DNA of 64,000 nucleotides from assembly GCA_016658885.1 (NCBI GenBank), contig GCA_016658885.1_4807.1. One strand, given 5' to 3'. The DNA is from a phage. Made by a program: the position numbers and the translations under genes. Positions 4,495 to 60,462 of the stretch are shown here, in pieces (positions within the stretch are counted from its first letter, which is position 1; every line of letters begins with the position of its first letter). The notes beneath the pieces were generated by a model. That model saw nothing but the letters and a program-made list of their open reading frames with translations. It was not told the origin of the DNA and ran no database searches.

Positions 4495-4525
4495 ATTATA
4501 GTCTTAGTGTACGAAGAAGTAAAGC
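4495..4525 (-). promoter_or_regulatory. sigma70-like promoter for 4137..4427
   Basis: Minus-strand CTTTACTTCTTCGTACAC...TATAAT; same element repeated at 4894..4923 and 4965..4993. Confidence 0.45.
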
Positions 4526-4893: not shown

Positions 4894-4923
4894 AGTATAC
4901 GCGAGTGTACGAAGAAGTAAAGA
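4894..4923 (-). promoter_or_regulatory. sigma70-like promoter for 4535..4837
   Basis: Minus-strand CTTTACTTCTTCGTACACTCGCGTATACT, followed by TGTTTATATCGAGACGGG as in the 4495 copy. Confidence 0.4.
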
Positions 4924-4964: not shown

Positions 4965-4993
4965 CTTTACTTTTTTCTACACTATATTATAAT
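4965..4993 (+). promoter_or_regulatory. sigma70-like promoter for 5062..5376
   Basis: CTTTAC, 17-bp spacer, TATAAT; near-identical inverted copy of the 4504-4531 element. Confidence 0.45.
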
Positions 4994-7221: not shown

Positions 7222-7590
7222 TGACGTATCATCCGTATTGCCGCAAGTCTTTGTTTTTACTTATATATTACGGATGATACGTTAAATATATAAATTAACA
7301 TAAGTATGAGGATGTAGAAAAAAATTAATTTAAATTAATTCAAAATGGAGTTAATTAATTTTTCAAATTATATATATAACGATGCCCAGTTTTATCCGTA
7401 TCATCCGTAAGATTAATGTACAAGCCAGGCGCGGCAAGGGCTGTACACTGATACGGATAAAAAACCATGACGTATCATGACGTAAGGGTGTACCAATTTG
7501 GAAAGGATGAATCCAGGAACGGCGCGGCCTGTAGCCATGATACGCTTAATTTTTAACCGTATTTTAAGCGTATCAAATGTGTTCAAACAC
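7222..7590. repeat. iteron-like repeat region with AT-rich core (origin-like), copy 1
   Basis: Direct and inverted copies of ACGGATGATACG / CGTATCATCCGTA flanking an AT-rich block at 7310-7380; similar to 60190..60462. Confidence 0.6.
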
Positions 7591-13222: not shown

Positions 13223-13273
13223 AATAACCTCACTTGTTCGCCTTGATGAAAAGAGTATAAGTATTGATAAAAG

Positions 13274-13303
13274 AAAAGGCAAGCATTTAGCTCACCTTTT
13301 TGA
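13274..13303 (-). promoter_or_regulatory. conserved 30-bp intergenic element, copy 2
   Basis: Identical to 11771..11800. Confidence 0.45.
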
Positions 13304-24103: not shown

Positions 24104-24169
24104 TTTGCTTTCTGCTTCAATGGGCGTATACTTTAATCATTGAAGCAGAACTCATAAGAGGAAACGAAA

Positions 24170-24629: not shown

Positions 24630-25433
24630 ATGAAAGTTGAATTAATTCGATACACCCAAGATGCACTTGACCTTTTGCTGGAAACAAAGAACACGCGCAT
24701 GACTGGTAAGCCCGTCTCTGAGATGACAGAATCAGAGAAGCAAGAGCACTGGCGCTATATGCTTGACACCATCAAGTCACCTTTTGACTTTGTGGACTAT
24801 ATCTTTGATATCACTGATGTATCAAAGAACATGACCCATCAGATGGTACGCACACGCACAGGCGCATATCAAGAACGCACCAGCCGCGCGCAGGAGTCAT
24901 CTGCTTTTGATGCGATTCGTCCGAAAGCGTTTGAGTATGACGACCCTGACAGGGTTATCGGCGAGCGAATCGACGAGCAGCGTTTGAAGTTGGCTAACAC
25001 ATGGGACGACGCCATGGCGACCATTGACGCCCTATACCAAGAACTTCGCGCGGCTGGCGCAGAGATTCAAGATGCACGTGCCGTTTTGCCTTCTAATATG
25101 CAAACTCATATCATGGCAAAGTTCAACTTGCGCACGCTGCAACAGATGGCGTCAAACCGCTTGTGCACGCGCACACAAGGCGAGTATCAAGAAGTATTTC
25201 GCGCAATGGTTGCGGAAGTCCTCAAGGTGCACCCGTGGGCTAATCCTTTACTACAGCCGCAATGCATCGGTATGGGTAAATGCGCGTTTCCTCGTCACGG
25301 CAAAGCCCATTGCCCTTGGTATCGTGATTGGATGGATACTACGGCACAGCAAGAAGAGTTGCGCATCCAGTTTTGGAATGCGATGCCAATCACCAACAAT
25401 CCAGTTGCTAAAGATGGAGTATCAAAAGGATGA
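24630..25433 (+). CDS. ThyX-family (flavin-dependent thymidylate synthase-like) protein with variant active-site motif
   Basis: MKVELIRYT start; VRTRTGAYQERTSR aligns with ThyX RHRxxSYxExSxRY; ARAVLPSNMQT...NLRTLQQMASNR...EYQ parallels the ThyX C-terminal block. Confidence 0.65.
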   Translation: MKVELIRYTQDALDLLLETKNTRMTGKPVSEMTESEKQEHWRYMLDTIKSPFDFVDYIFDITDVSKNMTHQMVRTRTGAYQERTSRAQESSAFDAIRPKAFEYDDPDRVIGERIDEQRLKLANTWDDAMATIDALYQELRAAGAEIQDARAVLPSNMQTHIMAKFNLRTLQQMASNRLCTRTQGEYQEVFRAMVAEVLKVHPWANPLLQPQCIGMGKCAFPRHGKAHCPWYRDWMDTTAQQEELRIQFWNAMPITNNPVAKDGVSKG

Positions 25434-26302
25434 GCATTAAAAACAGCGAAATCTTAAACGTATTCGACCTTGACGGAACGCTGTTTGATGATCGTTGGCG
25501 CTTAGACCGCATTAAGGTGGCAGGTCCGTTGTCAGACTATGATGATTATCACAGCGGTATTGGTTATGATCAGTTCTATCCTCACATTGCATCAGCAGTA
25601 GAGTCGGCATCTCTTCGCGGTGAGGCGGTTGAATATTGGACTGCAAGGCCAGAAAAATACAGACAAGTGACTTTTGAACGTCTGGACAATGTTTTTCCTT
25701 TTGATGAATTTACAATCAAGATGAGAGACTATGGCGACAAACGTACATCAACTATTATGAAATCTGCATGGCTATCGCACGCTTTGCGGCACGGCGATTA
25801 TCGAATCATCAATGTATTCGACGACCGACAAGACGTACTCGCGCGGATGCAAGATGAAGCATTGTATTATAATTCCGTTGCTCAAAATAAAATCGCTTTT
25901 ACATTTAATCTTTGCAAGGCAGGTGAAGTGGTGCAACAATTAGCAATTGATCCAAGCGCAACAGGGCAAGAAGAGACTAAGGCTGTGGAAGTTGAACAAT
26001 CTCCGGCAACTGCCGCCGATATTCTTGATGCAATGGCAGCAACCTTCCGTGAGCGCAACGCTGTCTATGGCGATAACGCTGTGATGGTAGGTCAGGTTAT
26101 GCAAGTGCTTTTCCCTAATGGCGTGACGTTGAAAACGCCGGAAGACTACCACATGTGGCATCTGTTCGAGCTTAAGATTGTCAAGCTTACACGCTTCGCA
26201 ATCAGCGGCCTGAAGCACGAAGACTCTATACACGATGATGGTGTTTACAGCGCCATGTGTGAACGTCTTGTTAACACCCATAATATTAATTTCAATAAAT
26301 AG
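25430..26302 (+). CDS. HAD-superfamily phosphatase fused to an uncharacterised C-terminal domain
   Basis: Motif I VFDLDGTLFDD, later VFDDRQD; C-terminal 110 aa (AADILDAMAATFRERNAVYGDN...) unassigned. Confidence 0.55.
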   Translation: MSIKNSEILNVFDLDGTLFDDRWRLDRIKVAGPLSDYDDYHSGIGYDQFYPHIASAVESASLRGEAVEYWTARPEKYRQVTFERLDNVFPFDEFTIKMRDYGDKRTSTIMKSAWLSHALRHGDYRIINVFDDRQDVLARMQDEALYYNSVAQNKIAFTFNLCKAGEVVQQLAIDPSATGQEETKAVEVEQSPATAADILDAMAATFRERNAVYGDNAVMVGQVMQVLFPNGVTLKTPEDYHMWHLFELKIVKLTRFAISGLKHEDSIHDDGVYSAMCERLVNTHNINFNK

Positions 26303-26348
26303 TTTACTTGTGCGTTTCGATGAGTTATATTTATCTCATCGAAACGAA
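26303..26348 (+). promoter_or_regulatory. sigma70-like promoter with conserved downstream motif
   Basis: TTTACT, 17-bp spacer, TATATT, then TCATCGAAACGAA; same architecture at 33602..33648. Confidence 0.5.
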
Positions 26349-26367
26349 GTCCAAAAAGGATAAATAA

Positions 26368-27051
26368 ATGAAAAAAGTAATTGTTGTAACTGGCTGCAAT
26401 TCCGGTCTTGGTAAATCCATTTTTGACACCCTTGGCGCTTACGGTCATGAAGTTGTCGGTATTGATTTGGAGAACGGCTATGACATCCGTAACGCGAAAC
26501 AGATGAAAGAGCTTCTCTCTCAATACGACGTAGAAGGCTTGATCAACTGCGCTGGCGTCAACTCCAACAACTGGTTCGAAGATGTTAACTACGAAGAGTT
26601 CAATCGCGTTATGCACACCAACGCCTTCTCTTTCGTCAACACGACTCAGGCCGCGCTGAAAAGTCTTATTGACAACAAAGGTTTTGTGATCAACATCGTT
26701 TCCAACGCTGCGCATATTCCTATGACGTCCAGCTTGTGTTATAATGCTTCCAAGGCTGCTGCGCTCATGATTAGCAAGCAGATGGCTCACGAGCTTACGC
26801 CTAAATACGGGATCACGGTATTCTCTATTAGTCCTAACAAGCTACGTGGTACTGGCATGTCCAAACAGATTGAAGATGCTGTTTGCGCGACTCGCGGCTG
26901 GACTCCTGAATACGCTGCTGAATACCAGAAAAAGGCACTGATGAATGGATTGGAGACTGAGCCGCAAGTAATTGCTGACTTCATTCGCCATATCTTAATT
27001 ACGGGCGCATGGCGCTTTATGTCTGGTACTGATATTCCATTCGGTAAATAA
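26368..27051 (+). CDS. short-chain dehydrogenase/reductase (SDR)
   Basis: VVTGCNSGLGKS cofactor motif, NCAG, catalytic YNASK. Confidence 0.75.
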   Translation: MKKVIVVTGCNSGLGKSIFDTLGAYGHEVVGIDLENGYDIRNAKQMKELLSQYDVEGLINCAGVNSNNWFEDVNYEEFNRVMHTNAFSFVNTTQAALKSLIDNKGFVINIVSNAAHIPMTSSLCYNASKAAALMISKQMAHELTPKYGITVFSISPNKLRGTGMSKQIEDAVCATRGWTPEYAAEYQKKALMNGLETEPQVIADFIRHILITGAWRFMSGTDIPFGK

Positions 27052-27715: not shown

Positions 27716-27741
27716 GGCCGTCCTAATGGGCGGCCTTTTTG
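27716..27741 (+). terminator. rho-independent terminator
   Basis: GGCCGTCC-taat-GGGCGGCC followed by TTTTT. Confidence 0.65.
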
Positions 27742-31659: not shown

Positions 31660-32068
31660 CCGTGAGCAGAAATACATATTCGTGCCTTTGAAGAAGCATT
31701 CAGAATCGGTATTGAAGCTTCAACGAATCGAGTCGATGACTGGTGATGGCGTGCCGGACGTAATCGGCACCAACCGGAAAGGGCGCGGCTTTTGGCTTGA
31801 AATGAAGTTCTTTGAATCGTGGCCTGCAAGGGCCACCACTGCACCTTTCAGAAATGCATTTGAGAAAGGCCAATGTAGCTTCCTTTCGTCTTGGAATGAT
31901 TGGCGATACCCATCATTCGTTTTACTCAAAGTTGATGCTGAGAAGATGTTTTATTTAGTCCACCCTTCTATTGAATTAAAGCGTTATAATACTGCAGACG
32001 TTCAACGTGAGATAATCGTGAAGGGAACTATTCATCACATCATCAAGTATTTAGAGGAATTGTCATGA
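31646..32068 (+). CDS. VRR-NUC domain nuclease
   Basis: DGVPDVIG...GFWLEMKF PD-(D/E)xK-like core; immediately upstream of SNF2 helicase. Confidence 0.6.
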   Translation: MATNNREQKYIFVPLKKHSESVLKLQRIESMTGDGVPDVIGTNRKGRGFWLEMKFFESWPARATTAPFRNAFEKGQCSFLSSWNDWRYPSFVLLKVDAEKMFYLVHPSIELKRYNTADVQREIIVKGTIHHIIKYLEELS

Positions 32069-33588
32069 AAACACAAGGAATGCGCCACCAATTATTGGCG
32101 CTTGATAAAGCAGGCCGCAGAAAATACTTTGCTTATTTTATGGAACAGGGTCTTGGCAAAACATGGACCGCTTTGGCAGAGTTTGAAAAGCATTTTACCG
32201 CTGGCGCATTTGATGCCATGGTTGTCATCGCTCCTAACGGTGTCCACTCGAACTGGATTCGTCGTGAAGCACCAGAACACCTTTCCATTAAATGGATTGG
32301 TCACTACTGGCGCGGCAATGACAAGATGAAGACTAAAAAGGGTAAAGCGCTTTGGGAGAAGATGTTTGCTGATCACTATCCTGAAGGTGAAGTGCCTGCG
32401 CGCATTTTCTCATTTAACATTGATACGGTGAATACGCCAGTCGGTTATCAACACATTGAGTCTGTCTTGAAGAAGTACCGCTGTTTGATGATCATTGACG
32501 AATCGACGCGTATCAAAAATAACACAGCCAAACGCTCCATAAAGGTTGTAGAATTGGGACGGCTGGCAAAGGCCCGTCGAATCCTTTCTGGCACTCCGCT
32601 GCCGCGCTCGCCTGCTGATATTTACATGCAGTATCATTTCCTTGAAGCTGGCTTGCTCGGCACCAAATCATTCCGTGCATTCAACTCTGAATTTACAGTG
32701 CTTCTTGAAGCGCACGACCCAGAGATGCAGGCCATTCTCAAGAAAATTGGCGGCAATGGTCATGGTATTCCGCAAGTGCCGCGCAAGGACCAGTTTGGCC
32801 GACCGATGTACAAAAACCTTGACAAACTTATCCGGTTGATGGAACCGCACTATTTCCGCGCCACAAAAGCGGAATACTTGCCGGACCTTCCAGAGAAGGT
32901 GTACAAGTTTATCGACTTCGAGTTGTCGCCTAAGCAGCGCGATGTCTACGATGAACTCAAGAATGAGTACAACTATCTTATGGAGTACAAAGGCGAAGAA
33001 GAAAACGTTAAGTTTGAGATGATCGCATCTCGCACTAAGATGAAGCAGGTGACATCAGGCTTTGTTAAGGTGTATGATGAGATGGTCTACATGGAAGACA
33101 ACCCACGATTCACGGCCTTTAAGGACTATGTGGAAGGGGTGCTGGAAGACGACCCAGAGCGCAAATTCATTGTTTGGGCCATCTTTAAGGAAGAGATGAA
33201 CCAGATTAAGGACTGGCTTGAGTCTGAAGGCGTGGTCACTGGTGTATACAACGGTGAAACATCAAAAGAGCAGCGCGAGTTCTTGATTGATGACTTCCAA
33301 AAGAACACAGTTGAGAACGGTGGAACGCAAGTCTTAGTTTGTCACGCTGCAGCGGCAGGCATCGGAATCACGCTTACCGCCGCCGACTTGGCAATCTATT
33401 ATTCTTGCAACTATGACAACGAGTTGCGCAAGCAATCCGAAGACCGAAATCACCGCATCGGCACCAAATCAAGCGTGTTGTATGTTGATTTTATTGGTGT
33501 TGATACCATCGACGAAGAAATTCAGCGTTCACTAAGTATGAAGTCTATGCTTGCTGATCACATCCTCGATGGCAAAAAGATGAATTAA
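32065..33588 (+). CDS. SNF2-family DNA helicase / translocase
   Basis: QGLGKTW motif I, LMIIDESTRIKN motif II, C-terminal QSEDRNHRIGTK. Confidence 0.8.
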   Translation: MKTQGMRHQLLALDKAGRRKYFAYFMEQGLGKTWTALAEFEKHFTAGAFDAMVVIAPNGVHSNWIRREAPEHLSIKWIGHYWRGNDKMKTKKGKALWEKMFADHYPEGEVPARIFSFNIDTVNTPVGYQHIESVLKKYRCLMIIDESTRIKNNTAKRSIKVVELGRLAKARRILSGTPLPRSPADIYMQYHFLEAGLLGTKSFRAFNSEFTVLLEAHDPEMQAILKKIGGNGHGIPQVPRKDQFGRPMYKNLDKLIRLMEPHYFRATKAEYLPDLPEKVYKFIDFELSPKQRDVYDELKNEYNYLMEYKGEEENVKFEMIASRTKMKQVTSGFVKVYDEMVYMEDNPRFTAFKDYVEGVLEDDPERKFIVWAIFKEEMNQIKDWLESEGVVTGVYNGETSKEQREFLIDDFQKNTVENGGTQVLVCHAAAAGIGITLTAADLAIYYSCNYDNELRKQSEDRNHRIGTKSSVLYVDFIGVDTIDEEIQRSLSMKSMLADHILDGKKMN

Positions 33589-33601: not shown

Positions 33602-33648
33602 TTGACTTGTCACGGAAGATGAGTCATAATTACTTCATCGAAACGAAA
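33602..33648 (+). promoter_or_regulatory. sigma70-like promoter with conserved downstream motif
   Basis: TTGACT, 17-bp spacer, CATAAT, then TCATCGAAACGAA. Confidence 0.55.
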
Positions 33649-33662
33649 TAGAGTAATACAAA

Positions 33663-33926
33663 ATGGTACGCATCCTTGAACGTTACAAAAATGAAGCTAC
33701 TGGCGCAATCGCGTTCAAACGTCTTTTGGTCAAAGAAATTGACGGTCTGTTCCGCGTTGTAAAAGAGTTTGATTATGGCAACGTTGCTGGGGTGAATACC
33801 GTCATTATGCCTGGCATCAAGGCATATAAAACCTTAAAAGGCGCTGAGAAGGCTTTGGCGGCTTGGAAACCTGAACGTTATCAAATGACCCGTGTTGAAG
33901 GTCTAATGCAAGAAGGTAAAATATGA
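33663..33926 (+). CDS. hypothetical protein (87 aa)
   Basis: ORF track. Confidence 0.5.
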   Translation: MVRILERYKNEATGAIAFKRLLVKEIDGLFRVVKEFDYGNVAGVNTVIMPGIKAYKTLKGAEKALAAWKPERYQMTRVEGLMQEGKI

Positions 33927-35400: not shown

Positions 35401-35419
35401 TCGACAATCAAATCAACAA

Positions 35420-35446
35420 GGCTGCCGTTTGGCGGCCTTTTATTTA
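35420..35446 (+). terminator. rho-independent terminator
   Basis: GGCTGCCG-ttt-GGCGGCC followed by TTTTATTT. Confidence 0.6.
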
Positions 35447-60086: not shown

Positions 60087-60189
60087 CCACCCTCAAATAA
60101 GTATTGTGTATTATATCTAATGAAAAAAACTTAGGCAAACAATAATTATGGTTTGAATATGTATAACAACCGATATAGCCGCGCCTTAA

Positions 60190-60462
60190 TTAGTGTGATA
60201 CGGATGATACGGATAAAATGAGGCGTATTTTTATCCGTATCGGTGTATAAGCCGCGCTATCACTGGTGTGCTACGGATGATACGGATGATACGGATACTT
60301 TTCATATATAAGAGTTTATAAAAAAAATAAAATTAAATTAGATATATAATTTTAAATTAATTTATTTGAATTCCTATAAAGTATCGCGGCAACGCGTATC
60401 ATCCGTATCATCCGTAAGATTCTTTTGAAAACAACTACTTACTTGATACGGATGATACGTCA
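60190..60462. repeat. iteron-like repeat region with AT-rich core (origin-like), copy 2
   Basis: GATACGGATGATACGGATA, CGTATCATCCGTATCATCCGTAAGATT and AT-rich 60300-60370 block; mirrors 7222..7590. Confidence 0.6.

Follow-up and report, generated by a model that had tools for sequence, protein, structure and literature searches.

Promoter-early stem-loops (PeSLs) are small cassettes of T4-like phages in which a sigma70-like promoter is joined to a stem-loop terminator; they flank variable open reading frames (ORFs) and mediate their shuffling (Arbiol et al. 2010, PMC2839356; Comeau et al. 2014, PMC4122927). They are the closest known concept to the subject of this work, two intergenic sites, S1 (26303-26348) and S2 (33602-33647), in a 64,000-nucleotide (nt) stretch of phage DNA (GenBank assembly GCA_016658885.1, contig GCA_016658885.1_4807.1), the whole of which we call the window. 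The likeness lies in a small conserved cassette of sigma70-like promoter, stem-loop and Shine-Dalgarno (SD) sequence that is intergenic, stands beside variable ORFs and is repeated within the genome; the apparent insertion of a gene for an 87-residue protein after S2 and the extra ORFs found in some relatives past the SDR gene that follows S1 would fit the idea. In a PeSL the stem-loop is a proven terminator placed directly 5' of the promoter, whereas those described here lie inside the promoter, between -35 and -10 or around -10, and in the window have no U-tract. PeSLs belong to T4-like phages, where their recombination is documented; the present cassettes are found in Lindbergviridae, with only two copies per genome, and would have a part in shuffling by analogy. 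We favor, as a probable though by no means certain explanation, that S1 and S2 are internal host-type promoters set in composite promoter/stem-loop junction cassettes that carry a widespread start-site motif.

The window comes from a Wifcevirus, being 94-99% identical to WFH, AV128, FEC19, ECML-117 and others of the genus. Wifceviruses are E. coli myoviruses of 66-72 kb in the family Lindbergviridae, distant relatives of the PB1-like Pseudomonas phages. Both sites belong to a run of rightward genes for replication and nucleotide metabolism, S1 at the junction of a PNK/HAD phosphatase gene (25430-26302) with the SDR gene (26368-27051), and S2 at that of a SNF2-type helicase gene (32065-33588) with the 87-residue gene (33663-33926), after which come Pam3 gp33- and gp34-like genes. 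An earlier account made from the letters alone, here the sequence-only reading, had described the same layout at both sites (-35, a 17-nt spacer ending in GATGAGT, -10 and a shared motif) and had proposed co-regulated middle promoters with an operator at the transcription start. All of the elements are where it had put them, and the gene 3' of S1 is an SDR gene as it had supposed (Pfam adh_short). The shared motif, the 13-mer TCATCGAAACGAA, does follow -10 at both sites, but the gap is 4 nt, the motif beginning at the fifth base and not about 5 nt later; similarly, the perfect inverted repeat at S1 is present but longer than the 26316-26343 first given, its 12 nt pairing 26313-26324 with 26335-26346. 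The elements, read from the letters where no other source is named, are:

26303-26308, plus strand: S1 -35 hexamer TTTACT (the Kyle, PA1 and MTx junction has TTGACG or TTGACT)
26319-26325, plus strand: end of the S1 17-nt spacer, GATGAGT
26326-26331, plus strand: S1 -10 hexamer TATATT, then TATC
26336-26348, plus strand: putative S1 start-site and initial-transcribed motif TCATCGAAACGAA, +1 placed at A26338 by analogy with T7 A1
26313-26346, plus strand: S1 inverted repeat or stem-loop with arms 26313-26327 and 26332-26346, -10 central, the 13-mer as 3' arm
26356-26370, plus strand: SD sequence AAGGA and ATG of the SDR gene (letters and Pfam)
33602-33607, plus strand: S2 -35 hexamer TTGACT (orthologs TTGCCT or TTGCCG)
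33618-33624, plus strand: end of the S2 spacer, GATGAGT
33625-33630, plus strand: S2 -10 hexamer CATAAT, then TACT
33635-33647, plus strand: putative S2 start-site and initial-transcribed motif TCATCGAAACGAA, +1 placed at A33637
33603-33626, plus strand: S2 spacer stem-loop, TGACTTGTC (33603-33611) with GATGAGTCA (33618-33626), from folding and covariation
33663-33926, plus strand: 87-residue gene directly 3' of S2, missing at the Kyle, PA1 and MTx junction

The resemblance between the two sites is far beyond chance. The sigma70-like candidate sites of the window were aligned on their -10 hexamers in all 7,136 pairings; S1 and S2 were identical at 23 of 27 non-hexamer positions, and the next best pair at 16. 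A search of the 64-kb window finds the exact 13-mer at only these two places; besides them there is a one-mismatch inverted copy, which is the left arm at S1. Among 10 wifcevirus genomes 11-18% of the columns vary in the coding DNA on either side but just one in each 46-nt core, and the cores are 92-100% identical across 29 wifcevirus records. The variable positions are 26334, the unpaired mismatch of the S1 repeat, and 33613, a loop base of the S2 hairpin.

Composition and conservation make it very probable that both sites are promoters of the sigma70 type, read by the host RNA polymerase, and this part of the original proposal holds up well. TTTACT-17-TATATT matches the consensus at 9 of 12 positions (S1) and TTGACT-17-CATAAT at 10 of 12 (S2); the hexamers are thus near consensus at a spacing within 17 +/- 1 nt, and each pair lies 5' of a gene with a leader and ribosome-binding site (RBS), in a position conserved among orthologs. 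The orthologous junctions of Kylevirus (Kyle, PA1) and Myosmarvirus (MTx, TropicalSun, Hera) retain TTGAC(G/T) or TTGCC(T/G), a 17-nt spacer and a -10 hexamer despite changed spacer sequences. In more distant relatives the PNK and SDR genes are directly adjacent, with neither an intergenic region nor a promoter. Sigma70-dependent promoter-proximal pausing, as in lambda Q-type systems, calls for an xAxxxT hexamer, resembling -10, among the first ~10 bases of the transcript; reading each hexamer for A at position 2 plus T at position 6, we found none in the 12 transcribed bases of S1, ATCGAAACGAAG, or S2, ATCGAAACGAAA. Nor do the sites resemble MotA-dependent middle promoters of T4, since they have a normal -35 at 17-nt spacing in place of a MotA box (TGCTT) centered near -30, 11-13 nt before -10 (PMC4122927). 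In the related Pbunavirus 14-1, 26 sigma70-like promoters active in E. coli have been mapped by their transcription start sites (PMC10914365).

The shared 13-mer is probably a transcription start sequence and not a private operator. It joins ATCGA with GAAACGA and places an A 7 nt past -10. The annotated start of T7 A1 is the A of GATACT-TACAGCC-A-TCGAGAGG and that of T7 A3 the A of TACGAT-GTACCAC-A-TGAAACGACAG; because of these annotated starts and the A at 7 nt we read TCATC as start-site context. By this analogy the A of TCATC is most likely +1 and AUCGAAACGAA the initial transcribed sequence. T7 A1, T7 A3 and phi80 PL share the geometry of -10, short discriminator and Y-C-A(+1)-T, although T7 A1 starts with ATCGAGAGG and T7 A3 with ATGAAACGACAG, which have only parts of the 13-mer in common. 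TCATC stands at the same place in the PA1 ortholog of S2, in the Kyle and PA1 orthologs of S1 and in a minus-strand promoter of the window at 13254-13282. The last of these reads TTGCCT-17-TATACT-CTTT-TCATCAAGGCGAA, with a diverged start motif at the same offset. The word AAACGAA was also considered as a general leader word; found in 3 of 32 leaders against eight occurrences genome-wide, it is suggestive only.

Effects of the initial transcribed sequence have a precedent in strong T5 promoters, whose downstream region (+1 to +20) reportedly influences promoter escape, in work associated with Kammerer et al. 1986 and with Hsu and co-workers. The likeness is a conserved purine-rich transcribed stretch right after the start that influences late initiation steps. 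The 13-mer differs from it in sequence, and its conservation crosses phage families and host classes.

That breadth was initially hidden. A strict IMG/VR pattern, GATGAGT-N9-11-13-mer, matched wifceviruses and one chance site in GC-rich coding DNA, suggesting a wifcevirus-specific motif, a view overturned by short-query BLAST and a looser pattern. BLAST of the 50-nt cores gave short, strong matches in unrelated phages: Klebsiella Jedunavirus, Salmonella Felixounavirus and E. coli Nouzillyvirus have a common layout of hairpin, -10, 4 nt, TCATCGAAACGAA, A-rich leader and RBS, and the S2 core is 82-85% identical over ~40 nt to Jedunavirus and Drexlerviridae cassettes. The looser IMG/VR pattern, TAnnnT-N4-TCATCGAAACGAA, matched at least 120 stretches, compared with 7 for a composition-matched shuffled 13-mer and 11 for an N6 offset; an N2 offset matched 66, some of them in fact N4 sites whose -10 is a form such as TATAAC. 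Among the matches listed there are at least 110 distinct instances of TCATCGAAACGAA exactly 4 nt after a -10 hexamer, and their flanks form 47 unrelated clusters whose consensus recovers tTgac-17-TATaaT. A -10 matching at five or more of six positions accompanies 65% of 110 phage instances versus 30% of bacterial-genome controls, and an SD sequence with a start codon 11-26 nt past the motif accompanies 65% versus 20%; the controls are bacterial-genome matches to the 13-mer, taxonomically scattered and mostly at chance level.

The holders of the 13-mer include T1-like Drexlerviridae, Jedunavirus, Felixounavirus, Nouzillyvirus, phi80-type PL, Vibrio phage KVP40 and Agrobacterium phage Atu_ph07. 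In KVP40 it is borne by a promoter of PeSL-type consensus, TTGCAT-17-TATTAT. Phi80-type PL reads TTGACC-17-TTTAAT-TACT-CCATCGAAACGAA, and the annotated O-L region stops just before that A. Atu_ph07, a 490-kb jumbo phage of an alphaproteobacterium, has at least eight promoters of the form TTGAC(A/T)-17-TATAAC-TTAA-TCATCGAAACGAA-..AGGAG..ATG (loci L488, L454, L461, L470, L476, L487 and L491), with 13-mer and offset as in coliphages. The motif heads a tRNA gene and the ~400-nt phi80-type N leader besides mRNAs, and for that reason is not tied to a nearby start codon. Since it is common to many unrelated promoters at the same offset, we regard it as a general feature of strong phage promoters and not the site of a private regulator. 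No paper with the 13-mer, and no role assigned to the exact sequence, was found in the searchable literature; the S1 core gave no match in E. coli genomes at E <= 10, a search that cannot detect a 13-mer.

Among T1-like promoters of the form ATAGCAC...TTGCTAAAAC-hairpin--10 the match is graded, from the exact 13-mer through one to three mismatches to other A/C-rich leaders, in what is a biased sample. A very uniform Drexlerviridae-type class (loci L186-L297, e.g. L205) reads ATAGCAC-N3-TTG(C/T)TAAAAC-[hairpin]-(T/C)ATAAT-N4-YCATCGAAACGAA; its TTGCTA box is ~22 nt from -10, not 17, and its hairpin loops are often AAGGAT(G), as are those of MTx S1 and of the Kyle P4 and S2 orthologs (P4 is described below). 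At ~330-460 nt 3' of the motif in the phi80/HK225/Stx-phage-like PL region (L191) are an early terminator-like hairpin of the PL-type transcript, GGCGGACAGCAAGTCGCC with U5, and, further downstream, a tRNA-like 3' end (GGTTCGACTCCAGCCACCACACCACCA); Rfam gave no matching family.

The second constituent of the cassettes is a stem-loop laid over the promoter. It occupies the spacer at S2 and encloses -10 at S1 and at a neighboring promoter, P4:

24104-24150, plus strand: promoter P4 (TTGCTT-16-TATACT) with a 13-nt perfect inverted repeat around -10

The S2 hairpin, TGACTTGTC/GATGAGTCA, has nine pairs, two of them G.U, and is predicted at -10.0 kcal/mol in the sense strand against -6.1 in the antisense (z about -3.5 to -4). 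Orthologous S2 promoters fold in the same register (TGCC...GGCA). In an alignment of eight orthologous sequences from four lineages, 85% of cells are paired, versus 27-55% with the partners slid, and five stem pairs show compensatory changes on both sides. At S1 the perfect 12-nt repeat extends to 14 of 15 pairs around a 4-nt loop; spacer CGTTTCGATGAG pairs with start motif CTCATCGAAACG at -18.7 kcal/mol (z = -4.7). The P4 repeat, 24110-24122 with 24138-24150, holds -10 in its loop (-18.9 kcal/mol, z = -5.5), and its Kyle, PA1 and MTx counterparts carry spacer hairpins that are unrelated to it in sequence. In these three phages the P4, S1 and S2 junctions all carry significantly stable hairpins between -35 and -10, and a consensus scan flags three of the orthologs, both sites in Kyle and S1 in PA1, as both terminator-like and promoter-like. 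We also considered whether all promoters of the phage carry spacer hairpins and rejected it, strong folding between -35 and -10 being confined to S2 and one terminator-overlapping site.

A nearly identical arrangement to that of S1 is found in a T1-like phage, where CGTTTCGGTGAG...TCATCGAAACG around -10 is predicted at -18.5 kcal/mol sense against -8.0 antisense, a difference dependent on G.U pairs. Of 102 distinct T1-like spacers, 42 fold at -6 kcal/mol or below, a number that shuffling reduces to 4; the sense strand gives the more stable folds (Wilcoxon p = 1e-6) and has 65 G.U pairs to the 24 of the antisense. Sense folds are likewise the more stable at the stems of the window. Because of these strand and G.U asymmetries, the stem-loops would act as RNA read through from upstream and not as DNA dyads. 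At S2, where other genera preserve the stem through compensatory and G.U changes, it is probably a hairpin in RNA that closes the transcript from upstream. The stem-loop structure itself is borne out, at the level of the aligned sequences, by covariation and G.U pairs. The window hairpins do not have the makings of intrinsic terminators: at S2 four of the eight bases past the stem are T, and the S1 hairpin is followed by AAGTCCAAAAAGG.

Taken together, we propose that -35 and -10 at the 17-nt spacing would bind the host sigma70 holoenzyme, and that transcription would then begin in the TCATCGAAACGAA start-site module, from the A of TCATC, with AUCGAAACGAA as the first part of the transcript. 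The module may serve initiation, promoter escape or the fate of the RNA 5' end. The stem-loop over the promoter (at S2 the -35 context with GATGAGTCA, at S1 CGTTTCGATGAG with CTCATCGAAACG) would form only in read-through RNA from upstream, where it may mark or protect the end of the upstream transcript as an attenuator, a processing site or a 3'-stabilizing hairpin. The cassettes adjoin variable accessory genes and could act as homology patches for gene shuffling, as for PeSLs.

It should be considered that several points weigh against this proposal. The putative starts at A26338 and A33637 are placed by analogy with T7 A1 and phi80 PL, and the literature on wifceviruses yielded no transcription start or 3'-end data. 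The window hairpins have no U-tract and are not flagged as terminators, and spacer hairpins are not general to the promoters of this phage. Two observations are not accounted for: the conservation of the exact 13-mer across phages of E. coli, Vibrio and Agrobacterium, and the sharing of GATGAGT and GAAACGAA by S1 and S2. It is also possible that a DNA- or RNA-binding factor acts on the motif.

On the sharing of the two blocks, GATGAGT plus GAAACGAA is common to S1 and S2 in wifceviruses only and is absent as a pair from the sister-genus orthologs. The S2 spacer has its ortholog in PA1 (12 of 17 positions alike when compared by eye) and the S1 start region has orthologs in Kyle, PA1 and MTx; each site therefore seems to have acquired the other's block. 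Selection for a common factor, patchy gene conversion, or convergence under constraints from hairpin and start site are possible causes.

The alternative that fares best, though we think it unlikely, is that the motif works in RNA, a 5'-terminal AUCGAAACGAA being recognized by a conserved component of the cell such as the ribosome, an RNase, a 5'-end-modifying enzyme or an RNA chaperone and so setting translation or stability, with the S1 hairpin masking the motif in read-through RNA. Folding predictions leave the first 11 nt free in the RNAs initiated at S1 and S2 and fully paired in the S1 read-through RNA; the frequent start codon 11-26 nt on (in 65% of phage instances) would suit such a role, and conservation across hosts points to a universal partner. 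One might be 16S rRNA, where CAUCGAA would be complementary to a UUCGAUG of the E. coli molecule. Yet the tRNA gene and the long phi80-type N leader have no start codon near, the distance of the motif is fixed to -10 (at least 120 stretches at N4, 11 at N6) while that to the start codon varies, and a covariance-model search of Rfam matched no family.

Less probable again is the operator of the sequence-only reading, a site over -10 and +1 at which a phage or host repressor would co-regulate the SDR and 87-residue/DUF7307 units, S1 being a full dyad and S2 a three-quarter site. Neither the operator nor the label of middle promoters is supported, and a specific operator, though possible, is the less likely reading compared with a start-site cassette. 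As in lambda OR/OL, LexA boxes and the P22 Arc/Mnt operators, the 12-bp perfect dyad of S1 does cover -10 and the start site (about -25 to +9); its arm centers are 22 bp apart, on the same helix face. The identity of GATGAGT and GAAACGAA between the sites is wifcevirus-specific, and both cores are nearly invariant in the genus, although other regulatory intergenic regions of the genus are equally so. Unlike those operators, the dyad is not present at every site, S2 having only the 5 bp of GATGA/TCATC, and the 13-mer is not confined to one regulon: 47 unrelated promoter contexts, from different phage families and hosts, have it 4 nt past -10. GATGAGT at S2 is accounted for as the 3' arm of the covarying spacer hairpin, and the homologous T1-like repeat pairs only through G.U, which fits RNA and not a DNA dyad.

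No cognate protein came to light either. Pfam and PHROG searches of 30 neighboring or early ORFs, many of unassigned function, gave no DNA-binding match, and the model of the 87-residue protein (four strands and two helices, predicted local distance difference test score 76) had no significant fold match in the PDB. We know of no convincing match to the consensus sites of LexA, Fur, Cra, PurR, CRP or IHF. Searching IMG/VR and metagenomes with the SDR protein as a handle gave no usable upstream regions of intermediate relatives, and an alignment of DUF7307 proteins, whose relatives are only 30-40% identical, was not used.

Just as doubtful is recombination alone, in which the sites would be mobile linker cassettes homogenized by gene conversion and the 13-mer would have no sequence-specific role in expression. 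In T4-like phages PeSLs do take part in recombination that shuffles ORFs, the mapped crossovers falling between -10 and SD (PMC2839356, PMC4122927), the 87-residue gene is inserted right after S2, and the Jedunavirus and Drexlerviridae cassettes match the S2 core well beyond the motif. But mostly the 13-mer alone is shared between unrelated flanks, too short for ordinary homologous exchange; recent transfer is unlikely given that a jumbo phage of Agrobacterium and a phage of Vibrio both have it; and the identical blocks of S1 and S2 alternate with different ones (loop 0 of 7, -10 4 of 6), unlike a single conversion tract. Finally, that the sites are not promoters at all, merely RNA processing or termination hairpins of a long read-through transcript with incidental hexamers, is very improbable: the hairpins are real and conserved and promoter-like matches in the region are modestly above shuffles (39 vs 28.8), but -35 and -10 are kept at exactly 17 nt in four lineages while the stem sequences change, the 47 unrelated motif contexts have TTGAC-17-TATAAT as their consensus, and the layout matches T7 A1 and phi80 PL.

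The 87-residue gene is probably a horizontally acquired accessory gene; it is ~80% identical at the nucleotide level to a gene of Seuratvirus CAjan and relatives, and no such gene is present at the S2 junction of Kyle, PA1 or MTx. Elsewhere in the window there are three near-identical, strong early-type promoters in divergent arrangement, 4495-4523 (minus), 4894-4921 (minus) and 4966-4993 (plus), which read CTTTACTT...TACAC...TATAAT and have leaders with conserved hairpins (GGGGATGAG..CGAATAGGTCG..). Strong intrinsic terminators lie at 27716-27735, before genes for a DnaQ-like exonuclease, Pol III alpha and helicases, and at 35418-35439, before a 171-residue gene, MazG and ligase. Essential genes follow 20-40 nt on with no promoter-like site between, and consequently the genes past each terminator would need read-through or antitermination; Hera, Kyle and PA1 share the layout on the polymerase side (the region read for MTx and TropicalSun is too short to reach the terminator). 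Two large non-coding regions, 7224-7575 and 60129-60460, contain ACGGATGATACG-type repeat arrays, direct and inverted (e.g. CGTATCATCCGTATCA / TGATACGGATGATACG), flanking very AT-rich cores, and resemble iterons or an origin, or else terminal-repeat elements.

A broader and more tentative idea, which we put forward as a conjecture with the odds against it, is that TCATCGAAACGAA is an undescribed, sequence-specific start-site element of sigma70-type promoters, kept or converged on through conserved transcription or RNA-handling machinery across phages of Enterobacteriaceae, Vibrio and Agrobacterium, with promoter-embedded hairpins that couple the ending of a transcript to the beginning of the one after it. 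If true, such an element might make promoter escape very fast, or give the RNA a 5' end that is protected or privileged.

For the wifceviruses themselves, the promoter/stem-loop explanation that we favor would turn two anonymous intergenic regions into transcription-unit boundaries, each an upstream RNA end and a promoter, and would remove the case for a hidden repressor circuit in this phage. The 13-mer at its fixed offset may serve as a landmark for annotating promoters and start sites in phage genomes, as a candidate part for strong synthetic promoters and as a handle on how far promoter strength or RNA fate depends on the start site and the bases transcribed first. Covarying hairpins embedded in promoters would also extend the PeSL idea of composite cassettes beyond T4-like phages.

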